A stretch of 64,000 nt of DNA from Minisyncoccota bacterium (GTDB lineage Bacteria > Patescibacteriota > Minisyncoccia > UBA6257 > GWB1-50-10): NCBI GenBank assembly GCA_020059915.1, contig JAGVBB010000003.1, forward strand, positions 160,610 to 224,609, given 5' to 3'. The notes under the pieces are model-generated. The model had not been told where the DNA came from. It made no database searches and saw only the letters and a program-made list of their open reading frames with translations. The position numbers and the translations under genes were made by a program. Position 1 is the first letter of the stretch. Each line of letters begins with the position of its first letter. Shown here in pieces: positions 35,905 through 36,216 of the stretch.

Positions 35905-35990
35905 GATTATCCCCAGATTTCGACCTTATCCACACTTTTATCCACAATTCCCCACTTACATACACAAGTATACCATTATTCCCCGCTTTT
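35905..35990. promoter_or_regulatory. Cluster of DnaA-box-like 9-mers (two perfect TTATCCACA plus TTATCCCCA, ATTCCCCAC, TTATTCCCC) upstream of mraZ
   Basis: Boxes at 35907-35915, 35926-35934 (perfect) and 35938-35946 (perfect), same orientation with 12-19 bp spacing; further imperfect boxes at 35947, 35977 and about 36123; an AT-rich stretch follows. Confidence 0.5.
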
Positions 35991-36187
35991 ATGTAGTTCT
36001 TCATTTTTATGAATGAGACTAAAAAAACCATTATAAAATAAGGGTTTTTAGAAGTATGAGTTATCAACAGTTGATGTTTTTTGCGTTTGTGTTCTTTAAC
36101 TTTTTTGAACACGATCTTTCCGATATTCCCCACTTTTCATTTAAAAAACAAACAAACCTTCTGAAAATAATTTTTATATAACAAATA

Positions 36188-36216
36188 TTGACTACAATCA
36201 TTTTTCAGTTTATAAT
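36188..36216 (+). promoter_or_regulatory. Consensus sigma-70 promoter (TTGACT-17-TATAAT) for the small membrane protein operon
   Basis: -35 at 36188-36193 and -10 at 36211-36216, about 40 nt upstream of the ATG at 36255, which has a GGAG SD. Confidence 0.6.

Follow-up and report, generated by a model that had tools for sequence, protein, structure and literature searches.

A candidate MraZ operator with embedded DnaA-type 9-mers at the dcw promoter of a Patescibacteria genome

The mraZ gene, its neighbours and its promoter

The DNA studied here is a 64-kb stretch of a genome from the Parcubacteria (Patescibacteria/CPR), called the window below. It carries a dcw operon on the minus strand (31333-35887) with the gene order mraZ-rsmH-ftsL-ftsI-murE. 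The leading gene, mraZ (Table 1), is preceded by an intergenic region of 367 bp. On its 3' side come, in order, rsmH, a gene resembling ftsL/DivIC, ftsI and one for a Mur ligase, all recognised by Pfam. The MraZ protein of the window aligns with the PDB MraZ entries 1N0E and 9R4J at E-values of 1e-24 to 1e-26, with K13, R15 and R86 matched in the alignments, and these three residues are also kept in its alignment to 9QLR. Both of the DXXXR DNA-binding motifs expected of a protein that reads an MraZ operator are present. Judged by these alignments, MraZ is intact and its predicted DNA-contact residues are retained. Relatives of this protein (95-50% identity) and of the GyrB encoded nearby come from MAGs of Parcubacteria/Paceibacterota and other Patescibacteria, and one JGI contig (L042; handles beginning with L denote the loci fetched for comparison) is identical to the window at this region.

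The wider neighbourhood has several features of its own. The short dcw cluster is followed by dedA, gyrB, secE, nusG and rplK, an arrangement (28401-35887 in the window) whose synteny is kept in L125, L126 and L128. Some Jorgensenbacteria/Patescibacteria GyrB homologues of about 1030-1078 aa (P0064, P0094, P0111 and P0112) contain the intein-splicing domain PF14890. Two MreB paralogues are encoded at 55511-56536 and 60667-61671 (Pfam MreB_Mbl, E = 9e-116 and 2e-130), and a second PBP transpeptidase gene (52247-54121) adjoins them. On the far side of the mraZ intergenic region, the 91-aa and 111-aa hydrophobic ORFs have no Pfam match and are present in two, one or no copies across strains with identical MraZ (L042-L044). 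These ORFs are accessory neighbours that lie outside the candidate operator described below.

Table 1. Features of the mraZ upstream region and its borders in window coordinates
Feature	Position	Strand	Remarks
mraZ	35887-35456	-	Pfam MraZ, E = 7e-40
D3 box cTGGGGATAAt	35906-35916	-	one mismatch to the DnaA 9-mer; 19 bp past D2
D2 box TGTGGATAA	35926-35934	-	perfect DnaA 9-mer
Four-box array GTGT-N6-GTGG-N6-GTGG-N6-GTGT	35965-35932	-	exact 10-bp period
D1 box TGTGGATAA	35938-35946	-	GTGG box and perfect DnaA 9-mer
Proximal M-type box AAGTGGGGAAT	35947-35957	-	not DnaA-like, 3 mismatches
Extended -10 TGgTATACT	35975-35967	-	mraZ promoter
Distal box cTGTTGATAAc	36060-36070	-	one mismatch to the DnaA 9-mer; conserved island
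Distal M-type box AAGTGGGGAAT	36125-36135	-	same sequence as the proximal M-type box
Sigma-70-type promoter TTGACT-17-TATAAT	36188-36216	+	divergent; serves the small hydrophobic ORFs
Two small hydrophobic ORFs, 91 aa and 111 aa	36255-36881	+	between the Nramp gene and mraZ
Terminator-like hairpin	36880-36898		3' of the small hydrophobic ORFs

The mraZ promoter has an extended -10; this element, GTGGTATACT, forms a conserved island in an alignment of 12 relatives and is also among the most shared 10-mers. Its -35 is degenerate in the window; relatives L003, L004 and L018 have TTGACG or TTGACC with a 16-nt spacer. In the window, L001, L002, L043 and L044 the -35 consensus appears to have been lost, with the promoter dependent on its extended -10. 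At 35977-35985, overlapping the position of the relatives' -35, lies GCGGGGAAT, a third copy of GGGGAAT. Transcription most likely starts near 35960, about 7 nt past the extended -10, in which case the array of boxes described next would cover approximately the first 55 nt of the leader. A search of this leader for known structured RNAs gave no Rfam match at E-values up to 1.

A four-box array of GTG(G/T) repeats begins 2 bp past the extended -10 and finishes 45 bp before the mraZ ATG, on the sense strand of the gene. Its cores start at 35965 (GTGT), 35955 (GTGG), 35945 (GTGG) and 35935/35933 (GTGT/GTGG), and they are followed at 35915 on the minus strand by TGGGGATAA, which supplies a TGGGG core. 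The D2 box combines two registers, with its GTGG 12 bp past the preceding GTGG and a GTGT sitting in the 10-bp register. Farther upstream, the distal box at 36060-36070 is about 94 bp from the -10 and 123 bp from D1. The pattern GTGK-N6-GTGK-N6-GTGK has two overlapping matches in the 64 kb, all of them here, with 0.02 expected and two or more matches reached in 0 of 100 shuffles. The boxes of this lineage have the longer form TG(T/G)GGATAA, which makes two of them perfect DnaA 9-mers as well.

DnaA-type 9-mers and the case against a replication origin

It was these 9-mers that the initial annotation had reported, as a DnaA-box cluster marking either an origin of replication or a DnaA-regulated dcw promoter. 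The two perfect boxes that it listed are both found as TTATCCACA, at 35926-35934 and 35938-35946 on the plus strand. From its three one-mismatch boxes only TTATCCCCA (35907-35915, plus strand) survives a recount: ATTCCCCAC at 35947 has six mismatches as written and three in its best register, and TTATTCCCC (35976/35977) has three. A further box-like site placed near 36123 has at least three mismatches in its best register, and a real one-mismatch box, TTATCAACA at 36061-36069 on the plus strand, had been overlooked. The corrected set of two perfect and two one-mismatch boxes spans 163 bp, and every verified box lies on the plus strand, in keeping with the single orientation that had been claimed. 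The divergent promoter is also where it was described, with 11 of 12 consensus matches, as is an AT-rich tract (36140-36240; 78-85% AT against 62% for the window).

Enrichment of the 9-mer depends on the scale that is considered. Across the 64 kb there are three perfect copies of TTATCCACA (0.78 expected) and 18 copies at one mismatch or fewer (22 expected), so over the window as a whole the 9-mer is at chance level. The cluster itself, in contrast, is not random: four boxes with at most one mismatch fall within 200 bp, and 200 shuffles gave a maximum of three, reached three times. A chance cluster is ruled out by these shuffles and by the uniqueness of the GTGK-N6 pattern.

The third perfect TTATCCACA of the window (30467-30475) falls 147 bp upstream of gyrB, within the 3' end of the dedA/VTT-domain gene, and was considered as a second DnaA target. 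Relatives do not conserve it, with a one-mismatch copy in the opposite orientation in L125 and none in L127-L129, so this box is probably a chance occurrence and is treated as such.

If the cluster were an origin, DnaA would oligomerise on the boxes and open the AT-rich tract at 36140-36240. In favour of this reading, the four boxes (one mismatch or fewer) occupy 163 bp, an AT-rich stretch is found at a distance of 70-100 bp from them, and their number overlaps the low end of real low-GC clusters adjacent to dnaA, which hold 4-10 boxes per 300 bp. These cluster statistics come from 68 control loci. The dnaA controls as a whole are the 80 loci closest to B. subtilis in a metagenome scan with a typed alignment of E. 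coli and B. subtilis DnaA, and they are Firmicutes-like.

The surrounding DNA does not behave as the flanks of an origin. A GC-skew check had been suggested along with the origin proposal; when run within the window, it gives no change at 36 kb, as the cumulative skew falls monotonically through this position with no inflection. Once the coding-strand effect is separated, the skew retains a replication component of -0.076 to the left of 36 kb and -0.094 to the right, with no switch of sign. Gene orientation does not switch either. To the right of 36 kb, 22 kb of coding DNA faces the site and 3 kb faces away, and the genes between 38 and 62 kb, including rplJL, dnaJ, dnaK, tRNA synthetases and mreB, mostly point towards it.

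Companions of known origins were also sought. The 64-kb window has neither a DnaA signature or Pfam hit nor a DnaN, and neither gene turned up when syntenic loci of 22 kb from relatives were searched. Contigs of GyrB homologues, searched for linkage of dnaA to gyrB, have the order dcw-dedA-gyrB-secE-nusG, and gyrB is not near dnaA in them. No (TA[GA])x3 run of the DnaA-trio type occurs on either strand between 35801 and 36320.

The arrangement of the boxes is atypical as well. They share one orientation, whereas real dnaA clusters mix both. The AT-rich tract is the upstream and spacer region of the consensus promoter of the divergent ORFs, and it is replaced in L043 and L044, which have an identical MraZ and keep the boxes. 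In about ten deep lineages the boxes are linked to mraZ while the neighbours differ. On the evidence of skew, gene orientation, the lack of dnaA/dnaN and of a DnaA-trio, and the linkage of boxes to mraZ, an origin of replication at this site is very improbable and was rejected.

Conservation of the boxes among relatives

Repeats of the MraZ type are tied to mraZ far beyond the window. In 129 fetched loci, GTGK-N6-GTGK-N6-GTGK matches only just upstream of mraZ and on its sense strand, and the pattern is also found upstream of mraZ in non-CPR outgroups (Chloroflexi and Bacteroidota). The 80 dnaA control loci have no match. Arrays of GTGG-N6 repeats at or after a -10 precede mraZ in nearly all 41 relatives. 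The array is kept in orthologous loci, as an MraZ operator should be.

A finer footprint was obtained from 12 relatives whose MraZ proteins show 70-95% identity. Conservation in these sequences is confined to the -10 and the boxes; the remaining intergenic DNA is unalignable and the upstream gene varies. The proximal block reads AAGTGGGGAat-TGTGGATAA-nnn-TGTGGATAA-n10-CTGGGGATAAC, the last word being the relatives' consensus for D3, and there are two distal islands, CTGTTGATAAC (36070-36060) and GGTGGGGAAT (36134-36125). The distal M-type box is kept in the window, L001-4, L007, L008, L011, L018, L043 and L044 with diverging flanks. The distal D-type box, which is a perfect TGTGGATAA in L010, lies 118-126 bp from D1 in 10 relatives. 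Between the strains that share an identical MraZ and have two, one or no small ORFs, the proximal 115 bp are unchanged and both distal islands are retained. Several relatives (L006, L009, L010 and L011) have the third box at 12 bp where a regular array would have it at 10, and the fourth box is 19-20 bp away, so the array is not a textbook 10-bp repeat.

An unbiased count of k-mers in the 320 bp upstream of mraZ, made over 36 Patescibacteria (CPR) loci, ranks the DnaA-type word itself first. The 9-mer TTATCCACA/TGTGGATAA is shared by 29 of the 36 loci, as against four copies in the other 166 kb. The next words are GTTATCCACA (18 loci) and then the M-type word AAGTGGGG (18/36), and CTGGGGATAA is found upstream of mraZ in 10 loci and nowhere else in them. 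At one mismatch or fewer, boxes have a density of 9.3 per kb upstream of mraZ compared with 0.29 per kb elsewhere, and the six non-CPR outgroup loci have no such box in the 200 bp preceding mraZ.

These loci fall into two architectures. One, seen in the window's clade and in a few other clades, places D-type boxes past the -10, within the array. A range of lineages that includes Uhrbacteria-like and Nomurabacteria-like ones instead has a lone perfect 9-mer, sometimes two, upstream of the -35 at a distance of 6-20 nt (occasionally about 70 nt) and in either orientation, and their GTGG-N6 array extends over and after the -10 with spacers that do not contain ATAA. The lone perfect copy is present in at least six deep lineages (Uhrbacteria-like L013-15 with L034, L026-31/41, L032, L022 and L012). 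The MraZ contact motifs, HTIDEKGR..P and D.QGR, differ neither between the two architectures nor from those of the outgroups. Among variants of the D-type box, the GATAA(C) half is invariant and the GTGG half varies, appearing as GTTG or GGGG.

Two arrangements in other relatives deserve separate mention. Some Uhrbacteria-like loci (L014:2340-2440 and L015:2380-2440) have an array of 6-7 GTG(G/T)-N6 boxes that covers the -35, the -10 and the leader and greatly exceeds the 3-4 boxes known from MraZ operators. In L020, approximately 300-260 bp upstream of mraZ, two inverted perfect DnaA 9-mers surround a perfect 25-nt hairpin in the layout TGTGGATAA-ctttccaaggct aagccttggaaag-TTATCCACA.

Candidate readers of the operator and comparison with known systems

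In E. coli, B. subtilis and Mycoplasma, MraZ binds DNA as an oligomer, with one subunit bound per box, and represses the operon to which its gene belongs. The simplest account of the cluster, which the initial annotation missed, is that on the mraZ strand its boxes are GTG(G/T)-N6 repeats of the kind bound by this protein. Promoter/operator anatomy, uniqueness in the window, conservation and membership of the encoded protein in the MraZ family all agree on this point. We therefore interpret 35906-36135 as the regulatory region of the mraZ-rsmH-ftsL-ftsI-murE operon and as an autoregulatory MraZ operator rather than an origin, with a probability of roughly 80%.

Characterised MraZ operators have 3-4 GTG(G/T) boxes separated by 6 nt and located at or after the promoter (PMC12957436; bioRxiv 10.1101/2022.02.09.479790). 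In M. genitalium the operator is at the operon promoter and transcription starts inside box 1, and the boxes are read by Lys13, Arg15 and Arg86 (PMC12957436). The B. subtilis repeat, GTGG[A/T]G-N4, is needed for repression (bioRxiv 10.1101/2022.02.09.479790). By analogy, MraZ oligomers would cover the boxes between about +5 and +55 and keep the operon repressed, presumably by blocking RNA polymerase at or just past the start site. The distal boxes at 36135-36125 and 36070-60 probably add cooperative contacts.

Three observations count against a reading in which MraZ alone accounts for the conservation. The conserved word exceeds the GTGG core, as it is the whole 9-mer TGTGGATAA that CPR loci most often share upstream of mraZ. 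An invariant GATAA(C) joined to a variable GTGG half is the opposite of what a pure reader of GTGG would predict. Moreover, since the MraZ contact motifs are equal in both architectures and in outgroups, that is, in lineages with and without the extended boxes, base contacts by MraZ offer no obvious reason for the ATAA half to be conserved. This pattern supports the presence of a second reader besides MraZ, for which DnaA would be the obvious candidate.

DnaA acts as a transcription factor at C. crescentus ftsZ. In a similar role here, it would bind D1, D2, D3 and the distal box, a proposal that is compatible with an MraZ operator. DnaA on the leader DNA would compete or cooperate with MraZ, such that expression of the division genes tracks the replication state. 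We regard such co-regulation as a live prospect, somewhat short of an even chance, because the MraZ contact residues are the same in lineages with and without the 9-mer. Consensus boxes do lie in the promoter region, and they are conserved beyond the apparent need of MraZ. The rank of the 9-mer in CPR loci and its density upstream of mraZ point the same way, as do the lone copies, which stand in either orientation outside the GTGG array. The non-CPR outgroups have identical MraZ contact residues and lack the 9-mer, a comparison that rests on six loci. Thus, of the two interpretations offered by the initial annotation, the origin is unsupported and the DnaA-regulated dcw promoter gains some comparative support.

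The details of the boxes can be read both ways. The variants 6A, 7C and 9T all occur in real dnaA-adjacent clusters. The flanks agree with those of real DnaA boxes in the preference for G at -1 and differ at +1, as judged from three independent variant sites. However, positions 3 and 5 are the most tolerated in real clusters, and these are not the ones that vary here, again over three independent variant sites. Furthermore, the GTGG contained in TGTGGATAA should by itself attract MraZ. The D-like box of L016 and L017 shares the orientation and helical register of the GTGG array and could be a further MraZ box.

There is a precedent in B. subtilis, where DnaA is reported to bind and repress the promoter of yllB(mraZ)-ylxA-ftsL-pbpB (Goranov et al. 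2005, cited in PMC2533591 and PMC8203912). This promoter is not among the eight strongest stable DnaA sites of that organism (PMC2533591). A literature search found no paper that links DnaA boxes to mraZ in CPR or that deals with CPR oriC.

Another Patescibacteria DNA-binding protein might instead read TGKKGATAAC at the dcw promoter, its likeness to a DnaA box being coincidental. The invariant GATAA(C) would suit such a protein, as it fits neither the GTGG core of MraZ nor the usual tolerance profile of DnaA. On the other hand, mraZ is the sole candidate regulator encoded in the conserved neighbourhood, and the commonest form of the D-type box is exactly the canonical 9-mer. We consider this explanation improbable.

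As an MraZ operator, the site is ordinary and of a known kind, and it carries a caution for origin finders, which may be misled by GTGG-ATAA repeats that mimic DnaA boxes. In the loci compared, the conserved DnaA-box word is a real comparative signal across Patescibacteria, with an exact DnaA 9-mer as the most conserved word at the mraZ promoter of about ten deep CPR lineages. A DnaA box in the promoter of a division operon would logically link replication status to division. Our more tentative proposal, to which we give slightly less credence than to DnaA binding as such, is that the Patescibacteria dcw promoter carries a conserved canonical DnaA box that in this lineage may have merged into the MraZ operator, so that the sites are shared or contested. 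If true, initiator and division repressor would together form a minimal switch coupling replication to division in organisms with very few regulators. The signal thus yields a testable hypothesis about such coupling in ultra-small, regulator-poor bacteria. A defined 250-bp fragment allows binding of MraZ and DnaA to be compared; in the altered box TGTGGCGCC, the ATAA of TGTGGATAA is changed and its GTGG is kept.

Three kinds of known systems bear comparison with this site. It resembles the oriC clusters adjacent to dnaA in its local TTATCCACA-type 9-mers and nearby AT-rich stretch. Unlike those clusters, it has no dnaA/dnaN, skew switch or DnaA-trio, its boxes share one orientation, and its AT-rich tract is a promoter. 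With the B. subtilis yllB(mraZ) promoter and C. crescentus ftsZ it has in common a consensus DnaA box in the promoter region of a division operon. The boxes here differ in that they coincide with the candidate MraZ operator and are known from sequence conservation alone.

The site also resembles the MraZ-binding repeats (MBRs) that E. coli, B. subtilis, Mycoplasma gallisepticum and M. genitalium have at their mra/dcw promoter. These share with the window GTG(G/T) direct repeats with 6-nt A/T-rich spacers, in 3-4 boxes on the mraZ sense strand, at or just past the -10 of an operon headed by mraZ and accompanied by an MraZ with both DXXXR motifs. The boxes of the window depart from this plan in their extension to TG(T/G)GGATAA, in having a third box at 12 bp and a fourth at 19-20 bp, and in a pair of conserved distal boxes that lie about 120 and 180 bp upstream. 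MBRs are bound by MraZ in the known systems, whereas the CPR operator is a prediction from its sequence.
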